A stretch of DNA of 64,000 nucleotides, from the NCBI GenBank assembly GCA_036172245.1, contig JAYWIR010000007.1, positions 5,332,001 through 5,396,000 of the forward strand. Direction: 5' to 3'. Shown piece by piece: positions 10,152 through 51,260 of the stretch (position 1 is the stretch's first letter; each line of letters opens with the position of its first letter). The stretch is from Raillietiella orientalis (taxonomy: Eukaryota). The translations under genes and the position numbers were made by a program. The notes beneath the pieces were generated by a model. The model saw nothing but the letters and a program-made list of their open reading frames with translations. It searched no databases and was not told the origin of the DNA.

Positions 10152-10157
10152 AATAAA
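10152..10157 (+). terminator. Candidate polyadenylation signal AATAAA of the KCTD3-like gene
   Basis: Canonical hexamer about 40 nt after the stop codon. Confidence 0.45.
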
Positions 10158-14900: not shown

Positions 14901-17900
14901 ACGCGCGCTCAGCGTCTCACTGCACGCATCCGACCGCGTTCACGGAAATTTCAGCCTGTTTTCAGCTTTTCACCGTTACCAAGGCAACAATCGGGCGTGG
15001 TAAGGAAAAGAAAAAAAACTCTTCATGGGAGGAAAGATGTTTCGGAGATGCGCCTTTGCAAAAGCAGGAGTTGTGGCGTGCGCGTTGGGAGCGGCGGCGG
15101 CCGCATACTGCTACCGCAAGGAGGTGAGTGGCCATCCTTCTGTCTCCTTTTCCTCTTTCTTTCCTCCCCTGTTCCTTTCAGATCTTGGGCGCGGTCCAGC
15201 AGCTCTGGAAACCCGTTAGGAAAGAGGAAGAATCCGAAGAGCGGATGCTGGAAGACAGCCTGCAGCGTGCACTGTCGGGGGGCGATGCACGCTGCCGGGA
15301 AGGAGCCGGCCATGCTATGAGCTTTTGCCCGGGGGAGGAAGAGGAACCTCCCCTGGTGGTAGTTTGGGTGAGTTTCGGGTACACGCGCCACTCACCCGCT
15401 GCCCGTATTCCAGGAGTCGCGCGCCTGGAAGGAGCTCACGCGGAAGCAGCCTCCAAAATAGGCGCGCTGTTGGGCACCTGGGGGGTAGGTGTCCAACTCC
15501 AAAATGAACAGGGTTGCATTGGAGCGTTCGCCTGCTTGTTTTTCGGGGTAGCCGGGAAGACATAGGGCTGGTGTTGCAGCGGATGGCGCAAGAGGCACGG
15601 CGGCAGCGCCTTAGTTCCAAGGAAAGAAGTAGCGATTTGCGGGAAAGGGGAACGGAGAACTGCGAAAGTGATCAGCCCAGGAGCGGCAGGCCGTCGCAGA
15701 GGCGCTTCAAAACGAAGCTCTGCACATCCGGTCCGGAATCTCGAAGCAGGAGCAGTCTTTGCCCCGTCTGCAGCAGCTGGAGGGTGGAACCAGGGAAGGC
15801 TTCGGCGCAGAAAAGAGAGTGAGAGAGATAAGCCGCAAGTCCGGCGTCCGACTTTCGACCGTCCCGCACTCGGGTGATGACCGAGCGAATAAGAAAGCCA
15901 GGCTGCACCGCGCAGGGCAGACAGGGCTGGCGACACCCCTTGTCCGGTGCTCCTGCGGTAGCGCGCGGCCTCCGCAAAGAGTCGAGGCGACCCGGGAAGC
16001 GGTCCGGTCGGGCACTGGGGAGGAGGCCGCCGACCCCTGCCTGCCTTCAGTTGGAGACGTCGGCAGGGCCTCGCGCGCAGACCTGGCCACCGAGCCCGAG
16101 GGTCGCTTGTGGGAAAGAGGCGCAAGGAAAGAGAGTGCAGCGGATGCAAGCGGTTCGCAAACGTCGGGCGCGGGTGGGGTGCAGCAGTCGAAGAAACCGC
16201 TCGCCCGAACTCCGAGGAGCTTTCGATTCGTAGCATGACGGTCGTGAGGGAAGGAACGCCCCACGAATCCACATTCTTCCTGGAGGGCTTTACTCATGAG
16301 CTCGAGCTTCTTATCTTTGCTCCCTGGCTTGCGTTCTTGATCACTTGCTTTCCTTTTTTCTTTGCTTTTGTTTTTCCTTCGGGACACTTGTTTGCGCTGA
16401 TCTCTGGTTCTCGCTTACCATTCATATCCGGAGGCAATGATCATTCACGTGAACACGGAACCGTGCTTACTTTGCTTCCGCACGATCGGTCTGTAGCTGT
16501 ACACTCACGTGTGTATTATCCCGTGAATTCTGCTATACAATGGATATTCACATGATATGGAGTATGGAAGAGGTACTTTCGTCGAATGTATTCCTTACAA
16601 AACGTAGGTTTGCGTTAGCCCCCTCATATGAGCAGCACATAATGATACGCGCTTGCTGCGTTTGCCATTCAAATCACACTTCTTGCTGAGCTGTGAGCGT
16701 AGCGATTCGATGGCCATGGAAATGGATGCGATCAAGTAATGAGGAAATTGGTTACATGCAATTCATCAATTCTGTGTGCATTGAGTAGATGGACCTTTCC
16801 CGTAGAGAGCGTCGTGGACGTCATCGGAGTGTAGAAGGAAAGCACGTGGGTGTGGCTTCCGCTTTCTAATCTTTTGGCGCGTTCTTCCCCAGAAGTAGGA
16901 GTGGAAGCCGGAGGGCGAATTCTGCAAGGAGGAGTATCCGTGTGGGGCACCGCGGGGTGTGTGTGCCCGGAAACTCTTTCGATAAGAGCTCCCTTTGCAG
17001 CAAGGCTCTTATCGGTTCCATTCTTTGGGATTTTAGTGGCCACGGTTCTCGGCCTTTTGGCTAAGTTCAAAGTGCAGTTGCTACGCGTGCAGCTGCCGGA
17101 CGATGCAGAGCGACACCCTGCAGTGTGCAGGCGTCCGGCAGCAGAGTCTGCGTATCCGCGGACTTCCGAGTGCTGTCGATGATTGGTCTTCAGTGGAGCA
17201 TGTGGTGGTTCGACTTGTGGCTCGCTTGTAGCCACAGATTGCTTGGATTTTCCGGGATTTCTGTTGATTTCTTGGTAAGTCCTTTTTCGGGCGCCAGTGG
17301 ACTGGATGGGGTTCTTTAGGCAGTTCAAATCACCCTCGTCGCTGCACGCTGTCCTTGGGTGGTGGTGGCGTTGATGCTGCGCGGATGGTACTGCAGTGCC
17401 ATTGCGCATCGCTCGTTCCTTTTGTGAGGACCGCGACATTCGAAACCCCACGATCGGGCTGGGCGACGGAGAGCACGGTTTCGCTCTTCACGACGTTCGC
17501 CTCCGCCTTCGTCATCTTTTCTGCCGTGGTGATTGACAGCTGGGCGTCCACTCGTCGCCAGTCTTCCAATAAGAATCTGTGGCCCCTATCTTGGGTTCCT
17601 TGATGGGGACACAATGTGTTGATGGTCCTCTTAATGAGTCTTCTTTCTTGGCTTGGTCTCGCAATCCATTGATTTTTCAGGCAACAATTTTTACGTTCCT
17701 GCCACGGAGGAGGTCGTTGGGATTTTCCTGGAGGCCCTGGAGTCCTGCCGGTGTGAAGGCGTTTGCAGCGGGGCGTTCTTCTTCGACGTCGCTTTTACTT
17801 CCCAGTTGTCCGTGCCATCTGTGACGGGACTGCCTTGGTTTTCGGTCCTGTTGGACACCTCTTTGCGGAAGCAGCGGTGTAGACCTTGGTGTCTCACTGC

Positions 17901-18281
17901 TTGCGTTCTTTACGTCCGGAGTGTTGGACAAACACAAGCGAGTCTAACCTCTTTGTGTTGGTGCTTCACCTGCAAACGATGTTGCTCGCAGAGTACTCAC
18001 TGGAGGTTGACTGCCCGTACGGAACCGAGTTGGCGCTGCATATTCTCACGTTTACTCACTGCTTGCAGCGGTCGCACTTCGTTGCTTCCACCTGTCGTTC
18101 GTATTCTTTGACTCTTACGAGTTTCTTACTAAGCACGGTCAACTCTGACTGCGTTTCGTGTCTTCGTGCTTGCTCTATGCTTCCAGGAATTTCGCTGTTG
18201 TGGAGGAGGTCTTCTCTGGCAGCACGTTCTTCTTCCTTCTGCTGCATCGTCTCCGCGACGGTAGGAGACGTCGAGATCTTT
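11868..18281 (+). repeat. Segmental duplication, copy A (~6.4 kb)
   Basis: Near-identical (roughly mid-90s % by eye) to 34,044-42,136. Offset is 22,176 before and 23,847 just after the copy-B insertion. Similarity stops after ...gtcgagatcttt. Confidence 0.95.
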
Positions 18282-18340
18282 GTCCAGTCGACACACTTCC
18301 TGCACTGCCACTTTGCGTGAAGGAGAAGCTGCAGGAGCAG
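16950..18340 (-). pseudogene. Degenerate LINE relic (possible end of ORF1 and APE endonuclease start of ORF2), copy A
   Basis: Minus strand VKIVA*KINGLRD (~17,694-17,656) resembles the APE 'swNvnGL' motif, CVPIKEPK resembles 'lQEtk', and GDLNC (17,334-17,320) resembles 'GDFN'. Frameshifted. Confidence 0.55.
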
Positions 18341-27900: not shown

Positions 27901-28089
27901 CACTGTTGAACTCCAGGAGACAGGACAAGGTCTGCGTGCCTGCGCCAAGAGGAGTAAATAATCCCGGCTCAGTCGGTCATTGCGTTGTTTTCCAGATGCC
28001 TTTTACGAAAGGGACGCGACTACCCTGACGGATGAAAAGCAGCAAAGTGACTTATTTGTCAGCCAATCTCACGGACCCTCTTGTCCATC

Positions 28090-29033
28090 CCTCCCTGAGC
28101 AGATGCGGACGTCTGCCTCTGTTGCTCACGTCCATCCTGACGCCTAGACTCGAGGGTTTCTCCGAGCTGATGCTTTGGGGAGCGGGTGCGAGCGTCAACA
28201 GGTTGAATTCCAAAGTCGTCGCGTTTGGCATATCTTCCTGGGAGCAGCAGTCCGACTGGATCTACCTAAGGATCCCCTAGACCACGAGCTGGACGTCCCT
28301 TGGCGTGCCGTTGGACGACTTCATTCTAGTAGAAGCGTGGTCGGACTGCCTTCGGGAGTCAGGGAGTGCTCTTACTTCGTTCCAAGGAGGCAGATTCCTC
28401 TTGTCGTTGCGGGCCTCCGCGTGGCAACGAAGGCCAATCCGGTCCTACCTTCGTTGCCTTCCTTCTACACTCCCTCTTTTCTGTCTGTGTGTATTTGGTC
28501 ATGCTGCAGGCGCGACGCCTGTTGAGAAACGCTCTGCGAGGCCCCGCGAGGTCCAGTGTCCGCATTGAGGACCGGACGGCTGAGCATCCGGATGCCGGCT
28601 TGGGAAAAGTGACGTTCTACAGGATCGAACTTCAAGTGCAGCTCCGGATGCTGGCACTTCGTTCCACGCTATGGACGACTTCCTTGTGTGCTCCTGCACG
28701 CCTGATGCTGCGGCGGTGCACATCTGGAGAAGGACTGCTTTCGTTGCTACGGCATGCCCTGTCCGCCACTGGAGGCTTCGGCTTCCCGCTGAGGCAGACT
28801 CGCCTCGCTCCTGAAGACCCATCCTGGCCTGGAGTTGTTATCGTTTGTGGCATCAGAAAGTGTTGCTAGTCGAACTTGTTTGAGGGCGTCTTACCCCATT
28901 GTTTGCAGTGGAGGATGCTTTGCAATACCAGGTCAAGTGGACTCAGTGGCCACCACGCCCTTTTCCGCAGCTCCGTCTGCTCTAAGGGTAGCGGGACACG
29001 GCCATCGACACCATGCGCAGCTTGTTCATTTTT
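28090..29033 (+). mobile_element. L1/Tx1-type LINE ORF2 fragment (RT thumb and C-terminal region), frameshifted
   Basis: GASVNRLNSKVV...DWIYLRIP...VPLDDF...WSDCL and NALRGPARSSVRIED...AGLG...RIELQVQLRMLA match the ORF2 copies at 48.4 kb and 63.2 kb. Confidence 0.85.
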
Positions 29034-29510
29034 GAAAAGGAAGAGAAAGGAAAGAAGAAGCCAAAAAGAAAGGAGAAAAAGAGGAAGAGGAGGGAGAAAT
29101 AGAAACAAAAAGGAGAACAAAAAAAGAAAAAGAAAGCAAAAAAACAGGTGTGAGAAAAAGAAAAAAAGAAGAAATTAGAGGAAGGGAATCGAAACGAAAG
29201 GACAGGTAAGAAAAAAAAGGGAAAGATAAAAAAAAAGGAAGTAGAAAAGGTAAAAGTAAAGAAGAAAGGAAAAGAAGGAGAGGGTGGAGAGGACCAAAAA
29301 GAGGTGGAAAGAGGAAAGAAAAAGAAAAGAAAATACAGCAAAGAAGAGGAAAAAAAAACACCAAACAAAAGCGAAATATAAAGAGGAAAAGAAGGGAGAA
29401 AAAAAAGACAAGGAAAAACAAGATAGTGAAAAGGAAGAAATAAAAAACACAGAAGAGGAGAATGGAGAAAAATATAAAGTGGAAAGCAAAAATGGAAAAA
29501 GAATAGTTGA
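29034..29510 (+). repeat. Polypurine (A/G) low-complexity tract
   Basis: About 480 nt almost entirely A and G on the plus strand. Confidence 0.95.
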
Positions 29511-32917: not shown

Positions 32918-33589
32918 GCCTGGAAGAAGCAGTCGGAAAGGGAAACCCGAAACCACCCCTTTGGTTCGCGGAGGGCGTTTCCGCGAGCACGCAGGTTGGC
33001 GCGGGCGTGGTAATTTTCCGCGCGCAGGCAGCGAGCGTTGCACGGAAAGTTTGGCTTCTTTCGAGGTCGCATGGCCGCGGAAGCGCGTCCGCCCGCGCGC
33101 GGCCTGCCCGCAGGCGCAATGCGCTGCCGCGAGCCGCCGCCGAACGCTCACGGCCGTGTTCGCCGTGAGCGGGGGCGCGCGGGACGCATGCGCGAGCGAG
33201 TGCGGCCAGAGGACCACAGGCCGCGCGCTCGCAGCTGCTGTCTGACGTCGTGATGGACGGTGGTACTCACTGCGGGAGGCTGGCGTCGATCCCTGGGTCC
33301 GATGGTACGTCTGGCGTGCAGTGAAAACGTTCCCAAAAGAGCAAACGTGCTGAACGCGAGGCAAGAGAGAACACAGTCCGTCGTCGACTGAAAGTGTTTC
33401 TCGAATGCTCGAAAATTCGAACCCGAGATCGGGCGATAGAATGTCGGACGACGAAACAATGATGTGTGTCGTCACGGCAGCGAGACCAACGTTCAGCAGC
33501 GGATGGGGGCAGATGGCGCTGTCGCGACCGGCGGTGCGCGGGCGGCGATCCGCGCCTGCGCGCTCGCGAGCCGCCGTCGAGCCGCGGTC

Positions 33590-34125
33590 GCTAATCGAAC
33601 TTCGTTGCGGGCACCTAACAGCATTGTGTGAAGTGGAGAATGCGTTGCAGCACCAGGTCAAGCGGACACACTGGCGACCACGCCCTTTGCCGCAGCTGTG
33701 TCTGCTTTAAGGGCAGGGGTACACGGCCATCGAGATCATGCTCGGTTTCTTCACTTGTGGCGGCCCCTCGTTAGGCGCGGTCACCGCAACGATCTGTTGC
33801 ATCCGCACCATCCTTACGGCCCTCCTCCAGCCGGTGTCGCAGACAGTACCTAAAGAGTTCACCGAAATCGACGACGTTAACATGCGGACGGCTGCCAGGT
33901 GGCCTCGTCTGAAGAAAGTGACGAAGATGTGCGGCATCGAAAGCCGGTAACGAAAATATGGGACGGCAGTGCGTAAAGGCCCCTGTCCCTTAGTTAGCAT
34001 TCTGTATTTCTTGAAAGGTTTTTCCGTTGAAACGTTTTTCCTCCCGTTCCGGACTTTCTGTGTGCCCGACCTGCGTGTCAGGGAGCCCATATCTTCGAAC
34101 ATCTTTTCCCTTTGACCCTTGTCTT
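33590..34125 (+). mobile_element. 5'-truncated L1/Tx1-type LINE fragment (ORF2 C-terminus + 3'UTR), internally deleted
   Basis: Diverged paralogue of 11,428-11,950, starting gctaatcgaacttcgttgcgggcaccta; encodes ATICCIRTILTALLQ. Confidence 0.8.
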
Positions 34126-35686
34126 CCCTATTCCCGGATGGTTTGTTCGTTTCCTAGAATTAAACGACCCACCGCCACCGGGTGGAGGAAGACAGCAGCT
34201 TTCGTGCGTCTTTCCGCTTGCTGGCCCGCCCTGCATCTCTTTCCATCTGCAGCGTCCTTTGCCGGCAGTGAATGCGAACGCGCTTCCCGCACGCGGAAGA
34301 AGACGCACTCTGCGCGGCCAACACTCGCTGGACACGACGTGCTTCTTGAGCGCGGAGAACGCACACAAGAGAAAAAGGAAATTTGCTGAGGGAATGCACA
34401 GTCGCCCGATCAGGGTGGAAGCATTCCCTGGAATGAAAAAAAATCGGATGCTCCGTTGGAACGGTCGACGACGGAACGATGATGGCGGGGGCCAAAGAAG
34501 CGAATGGGCTTCCCCTTTCGAACGCGCGTTCCGACGGTGCCGGGAATTCGGGCTGGCGCCACGCAAACGCCCAGCCCCTCCCGTCACTCGGTGGCTGTCG
34601 CGTGAGCCTCCTTTCAGCTGCTCACCTACGCCTAGCAGGTAGGTTAAACTTTCTGCCGATGAGGCGAGGTGGACGCGCGTGCCACGCACAGACCTTGGCG
34701 TGTGCTCCCTCCTTGTTCGCCTTCCTTGGGGCAGGCATCGCAGAAGGGCCGCCCGCTGCACACGGGAGCGAGAGGCCGCCTCACTGCGGACGCGCTGCCC
34801 CCGGGGGTTTCGTCCGGTCGCGCTCCAATGCGACGAAAGGTGTTCACACTTTCCCCTCTTCTTACGGAAAGCAGCGGCTCCGTCGCCAGAAGCGCCCCGA
34901 GGCACCGACGTTCGCAGCGTGAGCACGAGAAAGCGCCAAAAAGGGCAAACTGCACCATCCGTACGACCTGCAAAACGGCTCCGACAAAGGAGCGACGTGC
35001 CAGGCGTGTTCATAACGGCGCCTCAGGCGGGATGTGGGATCCGCCGCGCATCCGAATCCAGAAGGAGAAAAATAAGACAACAGGAATCCATGTATGCGAT
35101 GTGCATCATTCATATGAAAAGGAAGATGCGCCAAATTGATTGACACAGAAGAGCACTTAGCTGCTGCATACAATAAAATCAACATGTAAACCATCACAGC
35201 AGCATATGTGCCGATGAGGGTACGTATGTACAAAACAATGGGCATACATTCATATCGAAGAATGCATTCGAATGTGCAAATATGAATATCGATATTCGTA
35301 TAATTGCATTCTCATCAAAATGTGTATATGCAATATTTCTCCACATAGGTAGGCATCGGGATACATGCACACGCATCCACAAATATATGTGTATATCTAA
35401 AAGTAAACAGGAAAATACATTCCAAAATCTACGAAAATACGCATAGAGTAATAGTGACGAAGAACATGCGTGCACTTATTTTTCTACAGTTATTTCTATA
35501 TGGAAATAGGGAGATAGAATGTTCAGGATATGCTTCAGAAAAAAAAAGATGAAAATGACGTTACTCATTGTATATGTGCGTCGACAGAAACGTGTACATA
35601 TCCCTGTATACCGACATACATGGGTACATATTTGATTCTTATCGTACTGTATAAACACATATGTAAGTTGATCCGAGTACGTGCAT

Positions 35687-37357
35687 CGATGATTTACATT
35701 CCAATCTTTTATTCTAACGGCATCCCCTTCCGCTTTAATTCTGTGCATGCGAATGTGTTGCTGGAATACTGGGGCCGGGTGCATCCCGCCGCCTTACTCG
35801 GAGGACTACACGGTTTAGGGCGGAGCCGTGACCAGACCACGGCTCGCAGGATCGATGAGTTCACAGTGCCTCCTCTCGCGAAACCCTCTCGTAGCCGTCG
35901 GGGAGGATACCGCTGTAGCCCTGGAAGTTTCGCATCTTCTCGCAGAGGGTGTGGTCGAACATGCCTTGGAATTCCTCTTTGGTCATACACATCCCCGAGG
36001 AGGCCGGCGAATAGCCAGAAAGCTGGTTCTCGAGGTAGTGGATGGTGGCACGCCGGTCGCCAGTGAGTTCCGTTATGGAGTACACCTTTACGTTGACGTA
36101 TATCTTAGGAGAGTTTCGGATGCGCAGCATCCCCTTTATGGAAGTCAGCATCGGAGGGTTGAGAAACGCTATGTGGTCTTTGAGTACGTGTTGCACTTCA
36201 ACAAGTAAGTTCATGAGGTGCTCCATGTGGATGAGGAAATCCCGGGCGAGGTGGCATTTGCGCTGCAAGAAGCGGTGGGGCGTGACGAAGCGTCCCAAAA
36301 GGGAGAAGGCGTGCCGGAACACACGGCGCAGCAGCAGGTGCAGCAAACTGTAGCCTGGGAACGGCGACCTGCACTTCAGCAGCCTTAGCGTAAGCCAAGT
36401 GTTCCGGCAGTGCTAATTGGGGTACGGGACATACGCACTCCTCTCCTCATGGCTGGGGCAGTTGATGACGTGGGGATAGATGAAGACCCCTTATTCGACG
36501 ACCCTCGTTCCGAGGTCCGTCGTTGAAGGAGGGGTCGGCTCGGTGGTCTCGTCTGCGACGGGGAAGAAATCCCCCGTCACTAGGACCTGCGAAACTCATT
36601 TCTCCCCGCAAACCAGCAGACATTCCAGCAAATCGGCAGCGGCGGCGTCCCTGCTGCCCGACACCGCAGCCCAGAGCTCTTCGACCAGATCTGCAAGAGA
36701 AGACATCAACTTGTATGCGGGTCGCAGGTATTTGTTTCCCTCAGCTCCACAGCCGTATGAAATCCCATGGAGTCGTAGGAGAGGGGATGCAGTGGTACAG
36801 GTTGGACAGCTGGCTCTCAGTGGAAAGCATGAGGTTTGCATCAAGGAAATAGAATTGGTAAGAAACGCATATGTTATGGAACACACCAAAGAAGAGCTTC
36901 CCTGAGGGTAGCCCAGAACCACTTCGCCAATAGTAAAATCAAGGCAATCGGGAACAACGGGCAATGTCCGGCCATACGCTTGTAGATGTTCCAGAATCTC
37001 CTTAATCAGCACTTGTGATTCCACTCGGATCGTTCTTTTGTTAAAATCTGTTTGCAGCACAGAATTAAGATTCAGAAATATTTTAAAGTGCCTCGAAGGC
37101 ATTCGTGCCGAAAAGAGCTGTTCGTGTAAAAGTTTTCCAACAGCTAACTGGCTGTCTGCTGCAATTTTCCTACATCGTTTTAACTGGCGAACAATTTGAT
37201 CAATTTTTCTTTAATAGCTTACTGATGAACAAGGGAATCCACACCTCAAAATTTTGATTGGCAAAACTGCCAATAAGCGTGCAATCACAATTCAAGTTCT
37301 TTAAATGAATAAATGCCCCGGCATATCCGGGTGACAAACGCCAGAAAGAAAAAAAAT
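35687..37357 (+). mobile_element. 1,671-bp insertion ending in a LINE-like 3' terminus and A-rich tail; candidate non-autonomous or chimeric retroelement
   Basis: Empty site in copy A is gtacgtgcAT tgagccatat (13,501-13,520). Filled site is gtacgtgcAT[cgatg...gaaagaaaaaaa]AT tgagtcatat. Its 3' end, aataaatgccccggcatatccgggtgacaaacgcca (37,308-37,343), matches 50,314-50,348. Confidence 0.75.
35861..37210 (-). pseudogene. ~449-codon single reading frame with three internal stops; family unrecognised
   Basis: ORF-track pieces 36,596-37,102 and 35,861-36,346 are in the same frame, separated only by TGA (36,596), TAA (36,491) and TAG (36,413); no frameshift. Confidence 0.55.
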
Positions 37358-40300
37358 TGAGTCATATTTCTGTTCATAGGTGACTCCAAACCTACATGAA
37401 TAGGACGAGAGATTGATAAATGAATGCATGTAGATATGGATAGAAATATACATTAATATCAATTGGCAGTCGTGAATACAGATGTATACAGTTGTACGAG
37501 CATCAGTAAGCATTGGCCTACAAGTTCCATCATCATGTGCGTGACACCCCTAACCGAAGAGTGTTCGGGAAGGCAACTCCCCGTGTCTGCGATGAGAGCA
37601 TTGGAATGCCAGACCGGAAACACCTTTCCCAATGTTCACAGCGGGAGACGGGGCGGGAACGTGGAGGTGGGCACACACACACAGGGAAGGGACCACGAGT
37701 TCTTCTCCGGAGCAGACCTCCATCTGGAACGCTTTCCTGGCCACCCACCTCCGATCTTCATTTCTTCCTTGCCCGCTCCCTCATTCGAAGAAGATTCGGG
37801 CGAAAAGTCCTGTGGAGGCTTCCAGGTGCCCAATTCGTTCAAAACACTTGGTGGAACCGCGTCGGGATGCTGCTTTGAGCACCCTCACGATTTCAAGGTG
37901 CAGTTTGGGAAGTGTGCGGAGCCACGGACATGCCCACGGTGTGCACCTGCGTGACTCATTGTGCGGGGCACTGCAAACAGTCGTGCAGTCGGTCTCTGCG
38001 ACGGGGCGAGCTTTCCCGTGGCTGCGGGAACACCGTCTTCGTGCGGAAGCGCACACGCGGTACGACAGGATGCGGATGTTGCCCCAAGGCGCCCAGCGAA
38101 CCAGCAGACCGAAGGCGACACGTGCGAGGCAACAGGCAGGCGGATCCCCTGCTGGAATCCACCGGAAGCGAACGCGGAAGCCAAGCGCTGAGCTCACCGC
38201 GCGCGGTGGTTCACGAGACAGGGACCAAGGTGCGGGCAGGAAGACGTGCGGTGACATGGCGGCACCCACGGCAGCGCTCGCCGTGCCCAGGGTGGCGGAC
38301 GTTCCTTTCGACCGGACGTCGATTGCGACGTGGCGAGGGAGCGACCGCAGCAGGCGCGGCAGCAACCAGCTGTCGATGCCCGCCAGCCCGTCGAGACGCC
38401 TGCCGACGGACCGACTGAAAGACAGTTGGACGCTGCCCGACGTCAACAACCGCTCTTCCCCGTGCGGTCGTGTTCGCGAGTGTCCCGGTGGCAGGGCGAA
38501 AAGGGTTGAAAGCTTGCAATGCACCGCTTGCAGTTCATGCAGTTCGTAAGAGAGGGTTTCCGCTGCAGGGGTGATGCGGACGGAGGGGCAGTGTCCAGCG
38601 TGAGTGCTTGCTGCAAGCGAGCACGCAGGCGCGCAACGTTCCTGGTCGCAACCGTCCGAGAAGTGCAGCCGTGGAGCAGCAGGAGTTCCTCGAAACAACG
38701 TGCTCTTCCCTATTTGGAGCCATGGATTCCTTCTCTTCTTCCCTGTTTTCTTTCTGTCTCTCACCAGCAACGCGCGCTCAGCGTCTCACTTCACGCATCC
38801 GACCGCGTTCACGGAAATTTCAGCCTGTTTTCAGCTTTTCACCGTTACCAAGGCAACAATCGGGCGTGGTAAGGAAAAGAAAAAAAACTCTTCATGGCAG
38901 GAAAGATGTTTCGGAGATGCGCCTTTGCAAAAGCAGGAGTTGTGGTGTGCGCGTTGGGAGCGGCGGCGGCCGCATACTGCTACCGCAAGGAGGTGAGTGG
39001 CCATCCTTCTGTCTCCTTTTCCTCTTTCTTTCCTCCCCTGTTTCTTTCAGATCTTGGGCGCGGTCCAGCAGCTCTTGAAACCCGATAGGAAAGAGGAAGA
39101 ATCCAAAGAGCGGATGCTGGAAGACAGCCTGCAGCGTGCACTGTCGGGGGGCGATGCACGCTGCCGGGAAGGAGCCGGCCATGCTATGAGCTGTTGCCCG
39201 GGGGAGGAAGAGGAACCTCCCCTGGTGGTAGTTTGGGTGAGTTTCGGGTACACGCGCCACTCACCCGCTGCCCGTATTCCAGGAGTCGCGCGCCTGGAAG
39301 GAGCTCACGCAGAACCAGCCTCCAAAATAGGCGCGCTGTTGGGCACCTGGGGGGTAGGTGTCCAACTCCAAAATAAACAGGGTTGCACTGGAGCGTTCAC
39401 CTGCTTGTTTTTCGGGGTAGCCGGGAAGAGGGAGGGGTGGTGTTGAAGCGGATGGCGCAAGAGAGACGGCGGCAGCGCCCAAGTTACAAGGAAAGAAGTA
39501 GCGTTGTGCGGGAAAGGGGAACGGAGAACTGCCCAAGTGATCAGCCCAGGAGCGGCAGGCCGTCGCAGAGGCGCTTCAAAACGAAGCTCTGCACATCCGG
39601 ACCGGGATCTCGGAGCAGGAGCATTCTTTGCCCCGTCTGCAGCAGCTGGAGGGCGGAACCAGGGAAGGCTTTGGCGCAGAAAAGAGAGTGAGAGAGATAA
39701 GCCGCAAGTCTGGCGTCCGACTTTCGACCGCCCCGCGCTCGGGTGATGACCGAGCGAATAAGAAAGCCAGGCTGCACCGCGCAGGGCAGACAGGGCTGGC
39801 GACACCCCTGGTGCGGTGCTCCTGCGGAAGCGCGCGGCCTCCGCAAAGAGTCGAGGCGACCCGTGAAGCGGTCCGGTCGGGCACTGGGGAGGAGGCCGCC
39901 GACCCCTGCCTGCCTTCAGTTGGAGACGTCGGCAGGGCCTCGCGCGCAGACCTGGCCACCGAGCCCGATGGTCGCTTGTGGGAAAGAGGCGCAAGGAAAG
40001 AGAGTGCAGCGGATGCAAGCGGTTCGCAAACGTCGGGCGCGGGTGGGGTGTAGCAGTCGAAGAAACCGCTCGCCCGAACTCCGACGAGCTTTCGATTCGT
40101 AGCATGACGGTCGTGAGGGAAGGAACGCCCCCCGAATCCACATTCTTCCTTTAGGGCTTTACTCATGAGCTTGAGCTTCTTATCTTTGCTCCCTGGCTTG
40201 CGTTCTTGATCACTTGCTTTCCTTTTTTCTTTGCTTTTGTTTTTCCTTCGGGACACTTGTTTGCGCTGATCTCTGGTTCTCGCTTACCATTCATGTCCGG

Positions 40301-40829
40301 AGGCAATGATCATTCACGTGAACACGGAACCGTGCTTACTTCGCTTCCGCACGATCGGTCTGTAGCTGTACACTCACGTGTGTATTATCCCGTGAATTCT
40401 GCTATACAATGGATATTCACATGATATGGAGTATGGAAGAGGTACTTTCGTCGAATGTATTCCTAAAAAACGTACGTTTGCGTTACCCTCCTCATATGAG
40501 CATCTCATAATGATACGCGTTTGCTGCGTTTGCCATTCAAATCACACTTCTTGCTGAGCTGTGAGCGTAGCGATTCGATGGCCATGGAAATGGATGCGAT
40601 CAAGTAATGAGGAAATTGCTTACATGCAATTCATCAATTCTGTGTGAGTTAGATGAGACCATTGAGTAGATGGACCTTTCGCGTAGAGTGCGTCGTCGAC
40701 GTCAGCGTAGTGTAGAAAGAAAGCAATTGGGTATGGCTGCCGCTTTCTAATGTTTTGGCGCGTTCTTCCCCAGAAGTAGGAGTGGAAGCCGGAGGGCGAA
40801 TTCTGCAAGGAGGAGTATCCGTGCTGGGC

Positions 40830-42136
40830 ACCGCGGGGTGTGTGTGCCCGGAAACTCTTTCGATATGAGCTCCCTTTGCAGCAAGGCTCCCATCGGTTCT
40901 ATTCTTTGTGATTTTAGTGGCCACGGTTCTCGGCCTTTTGGCTAAGATCAAAGTGCAGTTGCTACGCGTGCAGCTGCCGGACGATGCAGAGCGACACCCT
41001 GCAGTATGCAGGCGTCCGGCAGCAGAGTCTGCGTATCCGCGGACTTCCGAGTGCTGTCGATGATTGGTCTTCAGTGGAGCATGTGGTGGATCGACTTGTG
41101 GCTCGCTTGTAGCCACAGATTACTTGGATTTTCTGGGATTCCTGTTGATTTCTTGGTCAGTCCTTCAAGCGCCGGTGGACTGGATGGGGTTCTTTAGGCA
41201 GTTCAAATCACCCTCGTCGCTGCACGCTGTCCTCGAGTGGTGGTGGCGTGGATGCTGCGGTGCCCTTGCGCATCGCTCGTTCCTTTTGTGAGGACCGCGA
41301 CATTCGAAACCCCACGATCGGGCTGGGCGACGGAGAGCACGGTTTCGCTCTTCACGACGTTCGCCTTCGCCTTCGTCATCCTTTGTGCCGTGGTGATTGA
41401 CAGCTGGGCGTCCACTCGTCGCCAGTCTTCCAATAGGAATCTGTGGCCCCTATCTTGGGTTCCTTGATGGGGACACAATATGTTGATGGTCCTATGGATG
41501 CATCCCCTTTCTTTGCTTGGTCTCGCAATCCATTGATTTTTGAGGCAGCAAATTTTACATGCCTGCCACGGAGGAGGTCGTTGGGATTTTCCTGGAGGCC
41601 CTGGACTCCTGCCGGTGTGAAGACGTTTGCAGCGGGGCGTTCTTCTTCGCTTTTACTTCCCAGTTGTCCGTGCCATCTGTGACGGGACTGCCTCGGTTTT
41701 CGGTCCCGTTGGACACCTCTTTGCGGAAGCAGGGGTGTAGACCTTGTCTCACTGCTTGCGTTCTTTACGTCCGGAGTGTTGGACAAACACAAGCGAGTCT
41801 AACCTCTTTGTGTTGGTGCTTCACCTGCAAACGATGTTGCTGGCAGAGTACTCACTGGAGGTTGACTGCCCGTACGGAACCGAGTTGGCGCTGCATGTTC
41901 TCACGTTTACTCACTGCTTGCAGCGGTCGCACTTCGTTGCTTCCACCTGTCGTTCGTATTCTTTCACTCTTACGAGTTTCTTACTAAGCACGGCCAACTC
42001 TGACTGCGCTTCGTGTCTTCGTTCTTGCTCTATGCTTCCAGGAATTTGGCTGCTGTGGAGGAGGTCTTCTCTGGCAGCACGTTGTTCTTCCTTTTGCTGC
42101 ATCGTCTCCGCGACGGTAGGAGACGTCGAGATCTTT
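40830..42136 (-). pseudogene. Degenerate LINE relic (possible ORF1 end / APE start), copy B
   Basis: HVKFAASKINGLRDQAKK (~41,560-41,510) and GDLNC (~41,213-41,199); duplicate of the relic at ~17-18.3 kb. Confidence 0.55.
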
Positions 42137-44313
42137 TAGCAGTCGGCACCGGTTCCACAACGCGCAATAACCTTCAACAGACGCGAACGTTCCGTCAGTT
42201 GGAGATAACTGAGCAAAGATCGCCAAACAGGGATCCATGTACTGTTATTGTTAGTGTGCAGGTTCCGTGGGAATGCAACCCGTCAGATTCTTCGTGTCCA
42301 CAGTGGAGAAACCGCCAGCGTGTGTACACGCCAATTTGCACAGCTGAACGTAGGTGTGGAAGTAAATGACCTTATCTACTGTAAAGCATTATGAATCTCT
42401 TGATTTGCAAAAGTGCATGTGAGCATCAGACTTGTGTTGTTAGTTATATCGACTTCGATAACCAAACGATCAAGTTCTCGATCTAACTTGGTATATGTTA
42501 ATTGGCGTTTATTCGCAATCAAACGCAAGTATGTCGACTTGCACGAATCGATATATGTAGAAGTATTTAGGTAGGAGGTAGAAGGTATAGGTAGAAGAAG
42601 GAGAAAGAAACTTGTTATCAATGGTGAAGGGGGGGCGTGAGCACTGCGTGTCAGTGTTCCGTGATATCACACGGCCGATCGACAACAACCTTCCCCTCAC
42701 ATAGACATCAGCGTGTTGTGGTCTCAAAGAACGTATACGATTCGGGTGTAGCGTTGTGCCCACAGTGCGAATGAAGTCTCCATAAATGCCTTTTCTCTCC
42801 AGGAAGAAAGACAGACAGAGATTGCCTCAGCTGCTGCGGGTCATCTCGAGTGATTCCTGCCGTGAGATAAGACGATTGACGTGCACTGTTACTCCACGCC
42901 GGGGTTGTACGCCAGTCAGGACACGAAAGCACGCAGGAACCGGACGATCATAGCGAAGACCATTTAGGTCAACCCTTTTTCACGAGGCTTAGTTCCCTCC
43001 AAAACGGCCAAGATGATGCTACGGGATCTGCGATACCGAATCGCCTCGATGCTCGTTCTCGAAGGAGGCGATCTACCGTGAGGAAATGGAGCGCGGAAGT
43101 GTGCTCCCCAATCTCGTTCTTTATCCTATGAGAACCTGCTGACAACCTGTTGCCCGTTTGTTCCATCACGAAGGAAAGCGCTGACGGAGATGGTGACGAT
43201 CCTTGCAGAACTGCACGAAAAAGAAGAACAAAGGTTTCGGAGAAAAACGAACCGAAATTCGGAGAAATCCAAGAAGAAAACGGATGGTGCGAGAGGATTT
43301 GATTCGGTGAGAGTATGAAAGGCATCACATAACCGTGCACAAGACGTCCCCTCTAGAAAGCACATTACCATTGAATATTCAAGGAGAACGTTGGAGGCAT
43401 CTGCGGGTACGTGGAGACAACTTGGGAGAACCAATTTTCCTCTTTCTGAGAACTGCTGAGTAACGAAGGTGACACTCCAAGGATTCCCTGGGAGGATGAC
43501 CCCCATAAACGACTCTCATGTAGCGGAAGTAAAGCAAATTTCTGGTTGACCACAGTCAGCTCTCCGATCTGGAAATAAACAACGGCCAGTGCGATGTGCA
43601 GTCCACCCTCCTTCCGCTTCCGCAAGACTCGAAGGATTGGCACGGCCGCAAGGCGTACCGAAGGCGCGTGGCGAAATGCGGAGCTGCTGGGAACGGCGGC
43701 CTTTGCGTACGGGGCGTGGCGCACGAGCGAAATCTGCGCGAGCGAGTGACCGCCTCGATCACCGTTGCTCCGCAGAAGTTGGCGGATAGCTTAGTGCCGC
43801 CTGGCCACACTTCCCCACAGATCCAATATGGCCACCCGACCACAATTCCCGACGGATCGAACATTCCTTTCGCGGCGCCTGCGGAGGGCGCCGACAAATC
43901 GACTCCCTACGCGACTTCGTTTCCCGAGTCCATCAATCCTTATATCCCTGAGAGCGCCGTGTATCCCAAGGGTCAAACTCACACGAAAATGATCTCTTCC
44001 CTGTTTTAGAAGGTGATCCTGTGCAGCCTTTCCAATGGTGCCGGACTTTTCCACGCGTGGAGAAGTGTGGACATAGTGGTTTCAGTATCTTTCAAGGAAC
44101 ATAGAAAAAGCGACACATTGGGAATACATACACGTGTCGCGGGAATGGAGGTTTCCTTTCCTTTTTCGGAACTAATCCAAGGTGTAAAATTTTTGGGTAC
44201 TCCGTCAAGTGTAATGAATGTCGCTATCTCTCGTATTCCCATTCGTATACGCACGGAATGAACATGTCAAGAAAATTAGCATAAAGATTTCCATTGAACA
44301 TTTGTTTTTTTAG

Positions 44314-44584: not shown

Positions 44585-47500
44585 ACACCTGGTAGCCGTA
44601 AGAAACATACAGCCGCAAAGTGAGCGCATTTGCTCGCTCAAACTGAAAGGAGCGTATCCGTGGAAAGCTGTATGTTGTAGTGAACTGCAGTCAAAGTGAA
44701 GACCTTGGTGTAGCGGGCATTCGAAAATGGAGGAGTCCCACGAGTGAACCCATGTGCTGCTGGTAAACAAACCCGACAGGAAGAGCGCCCTTTAGAAAAA
44801 AGGGAGTGGCAGGCTTGCGGCGCTAACGACCAGAAATGCAATGCGCTTGCTCGCATCAGTTTCAGCAGCAGGCACGTCAATTGTGTGCCGATGGAGCGAG
44901 ACAGGAGGCAGGAGACAGAGTCGGCCCTTGCCCGCTCTGAAAAAGCTTCTTGGAACTGGTGCTAAGGTTGCAGCCGAAGAGCTGGCGCTGAAAGAAACGC
45001 TCAGCTGCTCCTGGCGCTATCCGTGCCAGTCACAGTGGCATAGATGGTGAAGCCGTCCGAGTTCCGTCGAGGTGGGGTCATGAGGGTGAAACCGGCTAAG
45101 TCGTCCGTGTTATCAGTGGCGCGGTTCGTGGTGGACGGCCGGACTGAATCGTCTTAGAGATCTTTCCGGCCAGGTCCTTGAAGAATCTTGAGGTTCGGTT
45201 CGGGTACATCTGCCCTACAGGTGCATGGCCGGGCTTTGTACGGAAGGCAGAGTCGGTACTCCATTGCTTCCGGGAACGCAAGTCTTCTAGTCTGCTCGGG
45301 CCACGATTGGGAACAATTTTGCGGCCAGCGTTCGTCGTCGCATGGGTATCGCTGCTTCCACCATTAGTAGAGAAACAAAATGGACTGAGGTTTCTGGACA
45401 AGAATTCGCGTGGAGCACTGAGAGGTTCACGATCTTGCAGCAAAGGTGTTTTGTGCTACGTGTTTAGACAATGGAGTTTGGCTGCTGATGCTGGCACTAA
45501 TGAAGGTTCGGTTTTAATTCTAAAGATTATCGTTGGCTGCCCAGAGTTCCGCGACGCAGACGGCATGCTGACGTTTCCACTCTCTTGGAAGGATAATAGC
45601 ATGAAAGGACTAACGGCGCTTCCTTTGGATAGTTTTCGTAGCCTTGCCGTTCATGTCTTTCGTCACTGTAAAGGCATCTCCCAGGCAAGAAAGGTCTGCA
45701 GTTGCCCTTGAAATACGTACGCTTGGCTGCAAGAACTGCTCAAACGTAAGTACAGATCACCAGCTAAACGCTAATGTGAGTTTCCGCCTATTAAAAGGCA
45801 ACAAGGGAAGTAGGAAGAAGTGAAGGGCAGAAAATTCGAAAATTTGGCGTGCTTATCAGACGCCTTCTAAGCCGCCAACATGTCGTTCCCTTTGGACATC
45901 GTTGCTAAAAGCTCATTTGGGATATCGAACGTTTGCTGCAACATCCACAGTAGCTATGGTTCTCTTGTAGGCTTGTGTGCTCCTCAGTTTGCTGAAACAA
46001 CCTACAATGGTCCCATACGACATGTACGCGGAGATGGTCTCTTAGGCAACTCAGAGGAAGAGCGCGGAAAAGTCCCAGTAATGACGAACAACTCTTGTCT
46101 CCTCTTGCTGCTGCAACGTTGAAGACTTTTGTTGTACAAACGCTGCTACAACTAAATGAGGGGAGGGCCATTGGCATCTGCAGCAGCTCTAAAGAGACAG
46201 AGATCCTTGCCTATCTGTCATTTAAATCTGTTGCCCTCTTGTCACTCTAGAAACGCTTTTTAGCGTACGTAATTACCGCGTTGTGGAACCCACTGAACAT
46301 TCTAAGGAACTCTTTGTGCAGGATTTTAAGTCGTCGACTGTCCGCAGTCGCTGCTCCACATTGCCCAAAGAAGAGGAAGAAGATGACCCACGTCAAGGGC
46401 TTTGCTGTCTACCTGCCTTCTTTTTTTCATTGCTATATCATAGAACACTTTTTGTTTTGTTCCCCCTCCGTTCCACAGAGCTTTTGAAAACCTCCCCTGT
46501 GTTTCGCTTACTTCCGTGGACTTTGTGGTTCAACAGACTCCCGAAAGTTCAATTTGCGGCTAACAACCCACCACAGTTGTACCACGCAAACAATTCAACA
46601 CCAGCGCATCAGCAGACAGGGTGGTTTCAACTAGCAATAATCACGGCTCAGTCGCCTTCCTCGCCTATGATAATGCCCGTGCGCAAGACAGGGTGGTCGG
46701 ACGCGTACTCACGCGATTCTCATGTAGAAGACGTGCTGACGATATGAGCGGTCTCCCGCTCGGCCCTGCCACTGGTCCACTGCCATCTGCTGTTCGGCTG
46801 GAACCGGAATGGCCGGGGTGCTCCAATGAAGCCGTCTAGCGCGCAGCATTCTTCCCGCACTTTTCGGAGATGCTGGTGGTTCTAAGATGACCACAAAAAT
46901 GGGAGGAATTCGGTGAATCTCCCTTCGCGAACGCTTCAACCGCCATATGGCATGTTTTCCGGGACAGCTTTCGGAATGAACCTACAGGAACTAGTTTGCA
47001 ACTGATTGCGCATGCGCCTGCAGCTCTTTTTCTTCACTAGGGGAGACAGGAGGAACGTCTGATTTGAGTTAAGGGGAGCGGGATACTTTGAGGAGATTTT
47101 CGAGCGGAGTACGGAGCAGTGCTGGGAAGGAACACGAGGATGGGAGCAGAAGTGGCGAACGACCATTTTCGGGAAAGCAGCAGAGGACGCCAGAAGGCGG
47201 CAGAGAGGGTGTTGGCTTTCTTTGTACTTCCGACCGTGGGCATTCTGCCTGCGAAGGTGTCGGGGAGAGGGTAAATGTAATCGGCGAATGGCACGGAGAT
47301 GGCATAGAGAAGCAGGAAACCTCATATCTGGACGCGTCCTTCCGAGTCCGAACTGCAGCCCTTGGACTGAGCATCGGACAATCTCGTGCTCTCAGAAAGA
47401 AAAGCGCACCGTTTTCTGCGTTCCTTCCAGGTAGGTGGGAAAAGCTGTTGGGTGGGCAGGCGATTCGTGGAACGCGGCCGACGCGACCTGCTGCGTGCTC

Positions 47501-48357
47501 ATCGCGTATGGCCGTAAAACGCGAACGCTCAAAATGAGATTTCCGGCGGCAGTCGCGCATTCCTCTTTTTCGATCCAGTGCGCACTTCGTGACATTTTCA
47601 GGAAGTGAAAAGCGGCCCAGCCAGCAGTGTTTGGTTACTCACTTAGTGTACGGAAGAGAAGCAACTTGACATAATTCGTACTTACATCATGCTGACGAGC
47701 GAGCTACGAGCTGCTGAAGAGCCAACTGCAGGGGAGAAATCTTCACGCCGTGAAGTGACCGTCTTCTGCGTAGTGTGAATACCCATTCTTCGGTAGAAAG
47801 GCACGAGGTGAACGCAGTTGACATTGACCTTCGGTGGAGGGAATATTGCCCCATTGCCAAAGGATGCATCGCTTGGCTGGGCAGCAATTTTTCTTCCAAC
47901 CGTTGTCAGCGTGAACGAGGAAGTGAATCTATAAGCTTTGGCAGGTGTAATGATTCCACCTGGAGAAGTTCTCCGAGTTCCTCTTCTCGCGCCGAGAATT
48001 TGTAAGATTTAAAGAACGACAAGAATGTTCCCCCTGTGGTCTCTTGAACATCTTGCTTTGCACGGACTGGTCAGGAGAGTCAGTCGTTGCTGGTTATCTT
48101 CCCGAAACGGTGATGATTTCATTGGATACGACTTGCTGTGTCACCCTCGAAAACGAGGCAGTTTTATTTGTTGAGGGTGGTGGTTTCAAACGGCAGAAGG
48201 AGAATAGCAAGTGACGTCATTTCAGGCGCCACCATGTCGTGTTGGGCAGCACTCTTTCCTCTTTCTTCGCTCCAATCTTCACGCAATATGAGCTCGAATT
48301 GAGTTTTTCTGTTGCTATGGTAAAGCTGCACTGTCGAAGCCGTTTCAGAGCACAGTG

Positions 48358-50348
48358 GTGCTCTGAAACGGCCGGCACGTGTACGGTGTGCCAGTGCGCC
48401 GCGGCATCCGGCAAGGGGACAGCCTGAGCCCCTTGCTCTTCAGCATCTACTTCGAGTTGGTGCTGAGAGCATACAGGGTAACTATAGCAACCATGCCGAG
48501 CTCGTGTGCCGGCACGCCTGCCGTGTCGGCCTATGCAGACGATCTTCTGCTACTGCTTCCCGGGTCCACCCCGGCGAGTGCGCTCGAAGACTTCGAGTTG
48601 ATACGCCGCGGGACGGGCTTGGAGGTGAACAGAGTGAAGTCGTCCATCGTCTATGTCGGCTCGGCGAGGGCTGGACGGACGGACTGGATCCGCCTGAGGA
48701 TCCCCACGGGCAGGTGCTTCAATTACCTTGGCGTTCCGTTGGGGGACTTCTGCATGACAGAAGGCTGGTCCGACCGTCTCTAAAAGGCATCGTTGGCGAT
48801 AGGTCCGTTCCACGAAGGCAAGTTTTACTTGCTGGAACGGGCCGCGGTGTGGAACGCGTTTGCGGTCCCCCTCCTCCGCTCCCTGCTTTTTGTTTGTCCT
48901 GCCCCTTACTTTGTTAGAAAACGAGCAGCGGGCCTCCTGAGGACAGTCCTTTGGGGCAAAGGGAGGTCCCGTGTGCTGCTCAAAGACTTGTGCGCTCCAC
49001 GTAAGGACGGTGGACTTGGTCTACTTACGCTGGAGCGAATGGAACTGCAAATTAAATTTAGGACTCTCGCCTTTGCGGCAGAACTGTAAGGCACGCCCTG
49101 GTGCGTTCCAGCACGCCTCCTGGCCCAACGGATCCGGTTATGGCGGACTTTCGTCGTTTCTCTGGGCGCGCGACCGCAGACAGGCACACTGCGGTTTTCT
49201 CCTGCGGCGCATGGCTGTTGTGGTTCGCGAGAACGCCTGGATCTCCTGCCTCCCCGGGAACTTCTCTGCATGGCTGCACGAGTCAGTCTCCACGTGGGAG
49301 AAGATCAACGTTCCGGGGGGCACAAAGAACACTTGCCTGAAAGGGCACGCCCGCTGGACACTGCAGGAGATCATGTAGTCCCACGACCAGCTTCTGTGGG
49401 CTCTGATTACTTTCCTTGCCCCTGTGCTGCCCTTTCTTGTAAACTCTAGGGACAGCAGCGAGCAGGGGAAATGGACAGTGTCCTGCACTATTGACGGCAG
49501 GTCACAACTGATCAAGGCGTGAACATTTCGGCAGTTAGCGGACGCTGCGACGCCGAGTGTTCCGCCCAACGGAATTCGACGCTGGGGCGAGCTACTCGGA
49601 CTATCTCTGGAGGAGACAAAGTGGCCCCCCAGCGTCCTGGAACAGTGTATCCCTCCCCCTGAAATGGCAGGAGGTGGCGTTGCCTGTGATACATTGGGGT
49701 TTATCCTTTAAATCACGCCTACATCACTGCACACGGGGGGCTGTGGACTCCCAGTGCGACCAGTGCGGGGAAAAAGAGACATTCCTCCACCATCTGCTTG
49801 AGTGCAGTGCCATTCGCCCCTTATGGGATCGTCTTGCGGCGATTCTGGACATTCGCGGAGGCACTCCTATGAACGTTTTTAGGCGCCTCTTCTCCGTGAC
49901 GTCTTGTCCCCGTCCTCTTGTGTAGCAGTTCTATGTTGCATTTGAGGGATCGTGGCGGCTTGGTACGCGATAAGAAGGTGTGAGGCCAGCGGCAACGCCA
50001 TACATTGGACTCGCCTTTTTGTGCGGAGCATCTGCAGGTGGCGCCATTTGGGCGCAGATAGGACGCAGCTTGTGAGGATTCTGAACAGGATCTAGAGGCC
50101 CGCTCCACGCTCACAGTGACCTTTTCCCTTCCCTTCCACCCCTAAAACATTTGTTCGCTCCCCACCTTTGAACTTTTTGTTTGTTTTGTTTTTTATTTCC
50201 CACCTCCACGCGTCGGATACACCTCGACGGTTCCGCACCGGCACGAAGCAAGCTGTCTTGATGTGGTGAGCCAATGAGCTCGCCACAAGAAAATTCTTGT
50301 ATTTTTATTATTAAATAAATGCCCCAGCATATCCGGGTGAAAACACCA
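48358..50348 (+). mobile_element. 5'-truncated L1/Tx1-type LINE: RT domains 4-7, C-terminal CCHC finger and 3'UTR; inactivated by stops and frameshifts
   Basis: RRGIRQGDSLSPLLF, AYADDL, GLEVNRVKS, YLGVPL, LWG...LCAPRKDGGLG, CDQCGEKETFLHHLLEC; pyrimidine-rich 3'UTR and AATAAA at 50,314. Confidence 0.93.
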
Positions 50349-50519
50349 CTGTGCATTGACGTGGTAGTTCGTTCACAGAGACGTTTGCTCACTCCTCTCT
50401 AGTGACTCTGTGCAATATTTGGTGCGGTCGTAGCGATGATACGAAAAGCACTTCGTCTTCAGAGGGAAGATGTATGAGAAGGGTAGAATGTTTTCTTGAA
50501 CCCTGCCCATTTTTACAGT

Positions 50520-51260
50520 GACGGTCGAAACGATTCTTGCGATATTCTTGAGTTCAGCGGATGAACCTCTAGGAAAAAGAGGTGCAGCTCTACAGCTTCC
50601 AACGCAGGTTAGCACGATAATGGACTTCAATTTAAGCGAATGTCACGTGTACGGTGTTGCCGTACGCAGATTTATCAGGCAAGGCGACAGCTCAAACTCT
50701 CCTAGGAACTCGTGGTCCCTTACTTTTGAGCGGAAAACCTCCGTTTTCCCGGTTCGCTGGGAACAAATTGCTCAGCTGTTTCTGCCCTAGGGATTTCAGT
50801 GCAATCATGGGAGTCATCTGGTTTCCAGAGAAGTTTTCTCCCCGAACTGTTTCAGGTGCGGAGTGATGGTATCGCTCACTCACCTTTCGTTGGAGTGCAG
50901 TGCCTTCAAGGACGTGTGGCAGAGAATGCTATGTGGGTTTGCGGACCGCAAAAGGCTAAAGGGCTCTTGCTGAGGCGCATCTTCACAGAACGCGCAATGA
51001 GGAATGGCCTGCAATCACATCCGTCTGCAGCAGCTGCATCATAGCTACGACCCGCAACGTGTAAGAATCACGTTCGCGGCGAAGAGAGGACACCAGCATG
51101 GCAGCAGCAAGGTTGACTGACCTGCCAAATGAAATCGTCGGGAAGATCAACACGATCCACAGACGCTTTTAAAGAAGAAGGAATGTCATATAGGAAAAAC
51201 TCTTGTCCTAACTTCCTTTTATTGTGATTTATTTATTGTCTACTCTCTCCATTCCATTTT
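50520..51260 (+). mobile_element. Older, internally deleted LINE copy in tandem behind the previous one
   Basis: HVYGVAVRRFIRQGDS (~50,645-50,692) jumps to PVRWEQIA...CFRCGVMVSLTHLSLECSAFKDVW (~50,750-50,920), homologous to 48.4 kb and 49.65-49.83 kb. Confidence 0.75.

Follow-up and report, generated by a model that had tools for sequence, protein, structure and literature searches.

A 1,671-bp insertion on a contig of Raillietiella orientalis (GenBank assembly GCA_036172245.1, contig JAYWIR010000007.1) appears to be a head-to-head chimera in which a non-mammalian long interspersed nuclear element (LINE) has been joined to the copy of a gene transcript. The analysis covered 64,000 nucleotides of the forward strand (positions 5,332,001 to 5,396,000), referred to throughout as the window and numbered from its first base. 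The insertion is found in one copy (B) of a duplicated segment and is missing from the other (A), and filled and empty sites thus stand side by side: a clean natural case, the value of which is that of a mechanistic footprint with a preserved empty site. The left part of the insert – the cargo – is by homology a pseudogene of the DHCR24 family lying on the minus strand, while the right part is a LINE 3' tail on the plus strand, closed by an A-rich run. The reading we favor, with a probability of about 0.55, is a one-off LINE-mediated chimeric retro-insertion into copy B by a reaction of the twin-priming type. If this is true, then a route catalogued so far mainly for mammalian LINE-1 (L1) is also used by a distantly related LINE lineage and is able to transfer a gene copy of nearly full length; what remains of the event is a dead pseudogene in a repeat-rich island, with no evident consequence for the organism.

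Filled and empty sites of a duplicated segment

An earlier note, made from the sequence alone, had proposed that both alleles are present in the window and that copy B carries 1,671 extra bp at an AT dinucleotide. Repeat spacing, self-BLAST and direct reading of the junctions all bear this out, and every coordinate given in that note proved correct. Repeat families are spaced 22,176 bp apart to the left of the site and 23,847 bp apart to the right: the difference is 1,671 bp. Self-BLAST pairs 11,424-13,513 with 33,587-35,689 on the left (90.4% identity) and 13,509-18,294 with 37,356-42,149 on the right (95.4%). From these pairings it follows that the A/B duplicate is a segment of about 6.9 kb dispersed 22 kb apart, and not a whole 22-kb tandem unit.

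Read directly, the junction in copy A is uninterrupted (GTGCA-TTGAG), while copy B reads GTGCAT/CGATG at the left junction and AAAAAAAAT/TGAG at the right. The boundary of the insert is ambiguous by the dinucleotide AT, and there are no further duplicated bases. With the insert left out, A and B align over 6,934 columns with 327 substitutions and 16 indel events; they are about 97% identical throughout, except in the first 700 bp (81%). Insertion into copy B is strongly favored over deletion from copy A, because a deletion would need two independent coincidences at the exact ends of the insert.

The divergent left end of the duplicate is an observation in its own right. The interval 11,424-12,123 is 81% identical to 33,587-34,300 and holds 8 of the 16 indel events, the remaining 6.2 kb being about 97% identical; these first 700 bp are LINE-related and similar to 28,763-29,034 and 63,530-63,743. 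The boundary of the duplication may lie near 12.1 kb. The possibility that A and B are a pair of LINE copies, each truncated at the 5' end and sharing a 3' end, was considered and rejected: there is no tail or A-run at either 18,294 or 42,149.

An antisense gene copy and a LINE tail

The earlier note had described a gene-sized cargo without LINE similarity. That description stands, and the cargo can now be given an identity – a retro-pseudogene of the DHCR24 family – and an orientation, antisense to the tail. A word-index protein search with the 183-amino-acid C-terminal open reading frame (ORF) of the cargo had no match with E ≤0.01; five matches came out of an exhaustive search with this ORF (best E 1e-6, 26-34% identity). 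One of the matched clusters includes a full-length member of 508 amino acids (P0006), residues 38-505 of which align by tblastn to 37,252-35,876 in a single frame (frame -1, E 2e-24, 24% identity). P0006 contains a FAD_binding_4 domain (E 1.6e-13) and its closest named Atlas cluster is Delta(24)-sterol reductase (TM 0.94, features 0.98). Although the cargo's own match to FAD_binding_4 is weak (17.5 bits against a cut-off of 26.4), homology to the family extends over its whole length and includes the FAD-binding domain: as judged by homology, the cargo is a DHCR24-family copy.

The copy ends in a TGA codon at 35,861-35,863, has no start codon and contains no frameshift. The absence of frameshifts is unsurprising, because A and B themselves show only 16 indel events in 6.9 kb. 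Four in-frame stop codons are present, at 37,211-13 (TAA), 36,596-98 (TGA), 36,491-93 (TAA) and 36,413-15 (TAG), and family-invariant residues are kept at 17 of 35 columns; because of the four stops, the copy is predicted to be without function. Alternative genetic codes and recoding were ruled out as explanations of the stops, since all three stop codons occur. A reading of 36,413-36,595 as an intron was likewise ruled out: the stretch aligns to coding residues of P0006, and the cargo is therefore intronless. No intron-sized break is found anywhere in it, whereas the host gene next to it, KCTD3, consists of several exons. Missing from the cargo are the first ~15-37 codons, and this loss coincides exactly with the start of the tail. 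GC content at third codon positions (GC3) is 0.61 overall but rises steeply along the gene, from 0.45 in its 5' half to 0.76 in its 3' half. Between the end of the tblastn alignment (37,252) and the tail lies an inner zone of 55 nt, with no significant match to the LINE 3' untranslated region (UTR), which may be either N-terminal coding sequence of the cargo or LINE 3' UTR.

When the insert was compared with the window by BLASTN, only one copy of it was found, and the sole non-self match with E <0.01 was between 37,308-37,343 and 50,314-50,348: 33 of 36 aligned columns are identical (91.7%, E 3e-7). The second of these intervals follows the degenerate ORF2 of a 5'-truncated LINE at 48 kb (LINE48), beginning ~260 nt past the last coding similarity; it is succeeded by unrelated sequence, with no A-run. 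In the insert the 36 nt are followed by the A-rich run GAAAGAAAAAAAA, presumably decayed poly(A). A 16-mer core of the tail occurs twice in the window, a count of at least two being reached in 0 of 100 shuffles: on sequence grounds the match to the LINE is non-random. The earlier note had reported just this near-identity to the terminus of the LINE at 48.4-50.3 kb, with three differences, and had seen nothing LINE-like in the remaining ~1.6 kb of the insert; BLASTN and a shuffle test concur on the latter point, the best local score upstream of the 36 nt being 19 as compared with a shuffle mean of 15.0 (sd 2.1), a value reached by 22 of 500 shuffles. An upstream extension of the similarity hinted at by a MAFFT alignment was accordingly dropped. 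The agreement between the two loci suggests that the 36 nt are the true terminus of the LINE family.

A hairpin within the tail, also pointed out in the earlier note, fared less well: the sequence is there (37,317-37,331), but folding gives no statistical support (z -1.1 and -0.5) and the stem is mismatched in the LINE copy. Beyond the window, a metagenome scan for the tail core returned 35 loci, of which 0/35 continued into the flanking tail sequence (by our own estimate, ~30 chance matches are expected for 18 specified bases), and a 24-nt tail pattern had 0 matches in the genome contig collection. A small-RNA-derived head or internal promoter was looked for and not found: an Rfam scan of 35,400-37,700 gave no match at E up to 1, and a tRNA scan of the window gave none.

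The positions of the polyadenylation signals define the geometry of the insert. AATAAA occurs exactly once on each strand. The plus-strand copy stands at the head of the LINE tail, separated from the A-rich run by 30 nt; the minus-strand copy is 22 nt short of the left junction and ~150 nt past the stop codon of the cargo. In the surrounding island the motif is found 24 times in 43 kb, both strands counted (0.00028 per nt per strand), and the chance of its falling 10-35 nt from a given end is ~0.7%. With one AATAAA on each strand near the outer ends, both of these ends resemble the 3' ends of RNAs and adjoin the flanks, the 5' sides meeting within 37,253-37,307. The two retro-copied segments are thus in opposite orientation, the cargo on the minus strand and the LINE tail on the plus. 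The LINE 3' end with its A-run adjoins one flank directly, the next base belonging to the flank common to copy A; the template-3' side of the inverted segment adjoins the other flank, where priming would have taken place.

Table 1. Positions, strands and basis of the features described in the window.
Feature	Position	Strand	Details and basis
Copy A of the duplicated segment (empty allele)	11,424-18,294	+	Self-BLAST, A/B alignment
Copy B of the duplicated segment (filled allele)	33,587-42,149	+	Self-BLAST, A/B alignment
Insert, copy B only, 1,671 bp	35,686/7-37,356/7		AT-ambiguous ends; junction reading, repeat spacing, self-BLAST
Empty site in copy A	13,509-13,510		Break between GTGCA and TTGAG, AT common to both; direct reading against copy B
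Cargo 3' UTR, ~175 nt	35,687-35,860	-	Sole minus-strand AATAAA at 35,708-35,713
DHCR24 / delta(24)-sterol-reductase-family pseudogene	35,861-37,252	-	Intronless, one frame; tblastn
Inner junction zone, 55 nt	37,253-37,307		May be cargo N-terminal coding or LINE 3' UTR
LINE-derived 3' tail	37,308-37,343	+	AATAAA 37,308-37,313; 5-bp stem and CATAT loop 37,317-37,331
A-rich run GAAAGAAAAAAAA, 13 nt	37,344-37,356	+	Direct reading
Degenerate 5'-truncated LINE (LINE48)	48,339-50,349	+	RVT_1, zf-RVT-like, identity to P0018
Further degenerate LINE piece	28,089-28,773		
Further degenerate LINE piece	45,070-45,437	-	
Further degenerate LINE piece	50,644-50,928		
Further degenerate LINE piece	62,564-63,993		
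Further degenerate LINE piece, in A and in B	13,839-14,051 (A) and 37,686-37,898 (B)		
Compact multi-exon KCTD3/SHKBP1 orthologue	7,516-10,097	+	BTB_2, E 8e-19

Proposed twin priming and its alternatives

The earlier note had taken the insert for a LINE-tail-dependent element or a chimera. A LINE-capped insertion it is; the tail-sharing RNA and the template switch then envisaged fit the antisense layout less well than does twin priming. Chimeras of antisense mRNA and LINE-1 in mammals have been attributed to twin priming, a process that yields segments in opposite orientations (Cell Genomics 2026, PMC13174262). Twin priming is preferred here to both a tail-sharing RNA and a template switch of the U6-L1 kind, because each of these gives cargo and tail in the same orientation.

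In such a reaction a nearly blunt break would be made in copy B between GTGCA and TTGAG. The 3'-OH of the bottom strand would prime reverse transcription of the LINE RNA from its 3' end, with only the last 36-50 nt and the A-tail being copied, while the 3'-OH of the top strand would prime reverse transcription of a second RNA, a divergent DHCR24-like transcript: the cDNA of this transcript would begin at or next to the polyadenylation site and extend ~1.6 kb toward the 5' end. Joining of the two cDNAs at their growing ends would produce the head-to-head arrangement, with the antisense gene copy on the left and the sense LINE tail and A-run on the right. We infer from this arrangement that both DNA ends served as primers, that the templates were two separate RNAs rather than one read-through transcript, and that a family of the LINE48 type supplied the enzyme.

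Likenesses to described chimeras go only part of the way. The mammalian antisense mRNA/LINE-1 and small-RNA/LINE-1 chimeras (PMC13174262) also consist of segments in opposite orientation, with the LINE 3' end and A-tail at one flank, the other RNA antisense, and an empty site available for comparison. Set against those chimeras, the LINE piece here is only ~36-50 nt long, while the gene copy that forms the cargo is, at 1.6 kb, of nearly full length; the target-site duplications of 7-17 bp and the TT/AAAA-type site reported there are both lacking here; and the antisense RNA was copied there from an internal position, here from its own 3' end. The donors differ as well, the closest named relatives of LINE48 being plant L1-type reverse transcriptases (36-37% identity) and not mammalian L1. 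In the U6/L1 chimeras (PMC6789731) and the tripartite pseudogene of the Magnaporthe element MGL (PMC2104539), the 3' part of a LINE is likewise fused to the copy of an unrelated cellular RNA; these products, however, are same-orientation chimeric retrogenes, ascribed to template switching or RNA ligation, in which all parts point in one direction, whereas here they stand head to head. A literature search on twin priming in invertebrate LINEs found nothing useful, and we make no claim as to what is in print.

A classical processed pseudogene would share with the insert an intronless transcript copy, a 3' end defined by a poly(A) signal and a gene that was dead on arrival or soon after; in contrast, the insert has no poly(A) or T-run at the 3' end of the gene, no target-site duplication, and a LINE tail placed head to head.

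Several observations weigh against twin priming. The only candidate target-site duplication is the 2-bp AT, no endonuclease motif of the L1 type is present, and the site (GTGCA/TTGAG) is not A/T-rich; duplication and endonuclease site are L1-defining features, and may not apply to the LINE48 family. The left junction has no T-run, although tail-primed reverse transcription of a polyadenylated mRNA should leave one: copying of the transcript would therefore have started right at its end, or at an end that carried no poly(A). Four stop codons imply ~5-10% neutral decay of the cargo, as compared with ~3% divergence of the A/B flanks, and in simulations the probability of at least four stops was 0.009 at 1.5% divergence and 0.08 at 3%. 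This excess would fit a template that was already degenerate or very divergent, error-prone reverse transcription, or gene conversion of the flanks. The retention of just 17 of the 35 family-invariant residues belongs with the same difficulty. The GC3 of the cargo (0.61) is like that of the LINE ORFs (0.66-0.77) and unlike that of the adjacent KCTD3 (0.27-0.35), so that the cargo does not obviously come from a normal host mRNA. Finally, the analysis covered one such insertion and two copies of the tail.

Of the alternatives, the earlier note's own reading was tail-dependent mobilization in trans of one plus-strand RNA, whether once or as a non-autonomous family. A severely 5'-truncated LINE tail would lie antisense in the 5' part of a DHCR24-like gene or pseudogene, and an antisense transcript would end at the LINE AATAAA, bear the tail as its recognition signal and be copied by the LINE reverse transcriptase. 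Such a source accounts for the common 36-nt tail with its AATAAA and A-run, for the loss of the first ~15-37 codons exactly at the start of the tail and, because the LINE would have been inserted in the source gene, for a cargo that was already degenerate. Partnerships between LINEs and short interspersed nuclear elements (SINEs) are the precedent: the partners have a 3' tail in common, and recognition of it is termed 'stringent'. The insert resembles a SINE of this kind in having a non-LINE body that ends in the 3' tail of a partner LINE, but no head of the RNA polymerase III type, tRNA or Rfam family was found by the scans given above (tRNA across the window, Rfam at 35,400-37,700), nor was a SINE-type promoter; the body is an antisense copy of a protein gene, the stem-loop is unsupported as a recognition signal, and there is no second copy within the window. 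Moreover, the 5' end or truncation point of the single RNA must by chance fall 22 nt past an antisense AATAAA, a coincidence of ~0.7%. We consider this reading unlikely.

A further reading is that one or two pre-made cDNA or DNA fragments, the DHCR24-like copy and the LINE tail, were end-joined into a double-strand break as filler, with no target-primed synthesis. The nearly blunt break with 2-bp microhomology and no target-site duplication speaks for it, as do the missing endonuclease motif and the missing T-run at the left junction. Random capture, however, leaves unaccounted for the two RNA 3' ends that face the flanks, and also the fact that the LINE piece ends precisely in an A-run at the junction; filler capture is, in our estimation, improbable.

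A more speculative version of the story takes the 36-nt tail as the recognition handle of a LINE of the stringent type, whose reverse transcriptase would start on RNA 3' termini at both DNA ends with neither poly(A) pairing nor a staggered cut. The unit would then be the founding copy, or a member, of a family of tail-capped antisense-gene retroposons, its GC3-rich cargo drawn from the GC3-rich compartment of the LINEs, which may be foreign to the host, rather than from the AT-rich host genes. This is a conjecture to which we would give rather little weight.

Very unlikely is the proposal that the 1,671 bp are ancestral to A and B and were lost from copy A by end joining mediated by 2-bp microhomology. 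An AT microhomology is typical of such deletions, and the cargo looks older (~5-10% decay) than the divergence between A and B (~3%). But the two breakpoints of the deletion must have matched those of the retro-insert, the left one 22 nt beyond the antisense AATAAA and the right one at the last A of the A-run: two independent coincidences of a few bp each within kilobases.

Helitrons have a 5' TC, a 3' CTRR and a hairpin ~10-12 nt from the 3' end, and insert between A and T. The earlier note had raised a Helitron as its alternative, here a non-autonomous one with a captured gene fragment, and the left end does start with TC at an A/T insertion site, with a small subterminal hairpin; the 3' end fails, being an A-run preceded by 36 nt of LINE-derived sequence and not CTRR, the hairpin is 25 nt from the end and not significant, the cargo is intronless, of full-length type and has its own poly(A) signal at the edge, and the Helitron is rejected on its 3' terminus as having next to no chance of being right.

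The tail donor and its surroundings

LINE48 has the parts expected of an apurinic/apyrimidinic endonuclease (APE)-type non-long-terminal-repeat donor: a reverse transcriptase (RT) domain, a C-terminal zinc-knuckle region and a 3' UTR follow one another in the expected order. RT homology starts at ~48,358 (RVT_1, E 1.8e-10), and a zf-RVT-like stretch at 49,539-49,922 has an E of 2.5e-4, a match too weak to pass the Pfam curated cut-off. The element is 70% identical to residues 273-528 of an unnamed RT protein (P0018); a search of the genome contig collection with P0018 gave a single RT of 26% identity in a contig of a metagenome-assembled genome, which is uninformative. Another relative (P0020) carries Exo_endo_phos, the APE-type endonuclease domain; the endonuclease part is absent from the truncated LINE48.

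At the 5' truncation point of LINE48 is a perfect 15-nt foldback (48,339-48,353 against 48,358-48,372, with a loop of 4 nt), the right arm of which is RT coding sequence and the left arm an inverted copy of the right. The structure resembles a snap-back or a short inversion arising at integration and, as an independent sign of inverted joints at the 5' ends of insertions of the LINE48 family, counts in favor of twin priming.

The further LINE fragments in the window are 28-50% identical to the 48-kb copy at the protein level. One of them (50,644-50,928) lies just 300 bp past the 3' end of LINE48, and another, present in both duplicate copies, lies to the right of the insertion site at a distance of 330 bp.

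For the 9-mer GTGCATTGA the window holds four occurrences as compared with ~1 expected, and four were reached in 0 of 100 shuffles. Its positions are 13,505-13,513, which spans the empty site of copy A, 50,351-50,359, 7,336 and 16,776. The occurrence at 50,351 starts 2 nt past 50,349, where the LINE tail match ends, and the nick positions that this implies differ by ~6 nt; beyond the 9-mer, the 3' flank of the LINE has no significant homology to the flanks of the insertion site. The 9-mer may reflect a target preference, or chance.

The host gene in the AT-rich left end of the window is an orthologue of KCTD3/SHKBP1: its BTB domain is 62-73% identical to arthropod, mollusc and nematode proteins, which marks the genome as that of an invertebrate animal, and it spans residues ~1-680 of the arthropod and mollusc proteins. 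Composition changes sharply beyond it. In the host part (1-11,200) GC content stands at 33.5% and the CpG observed/expected ratio at 0.41, as against 52.5% and 1.0 (figures for 11-53 kb) in the island of LINE debris (11,200-53,000 and 59,500-64,000); an intermediate block at 53-59.5 kb has 40% GC. The GC-rich island may be of foreign origin, may be misassembled or may represent an unmethylated compartment of repeats. The locus may also point to an unusual LINE island, GC-rich and not depleted in CpG, beside a compact and AT-rich animal gene.

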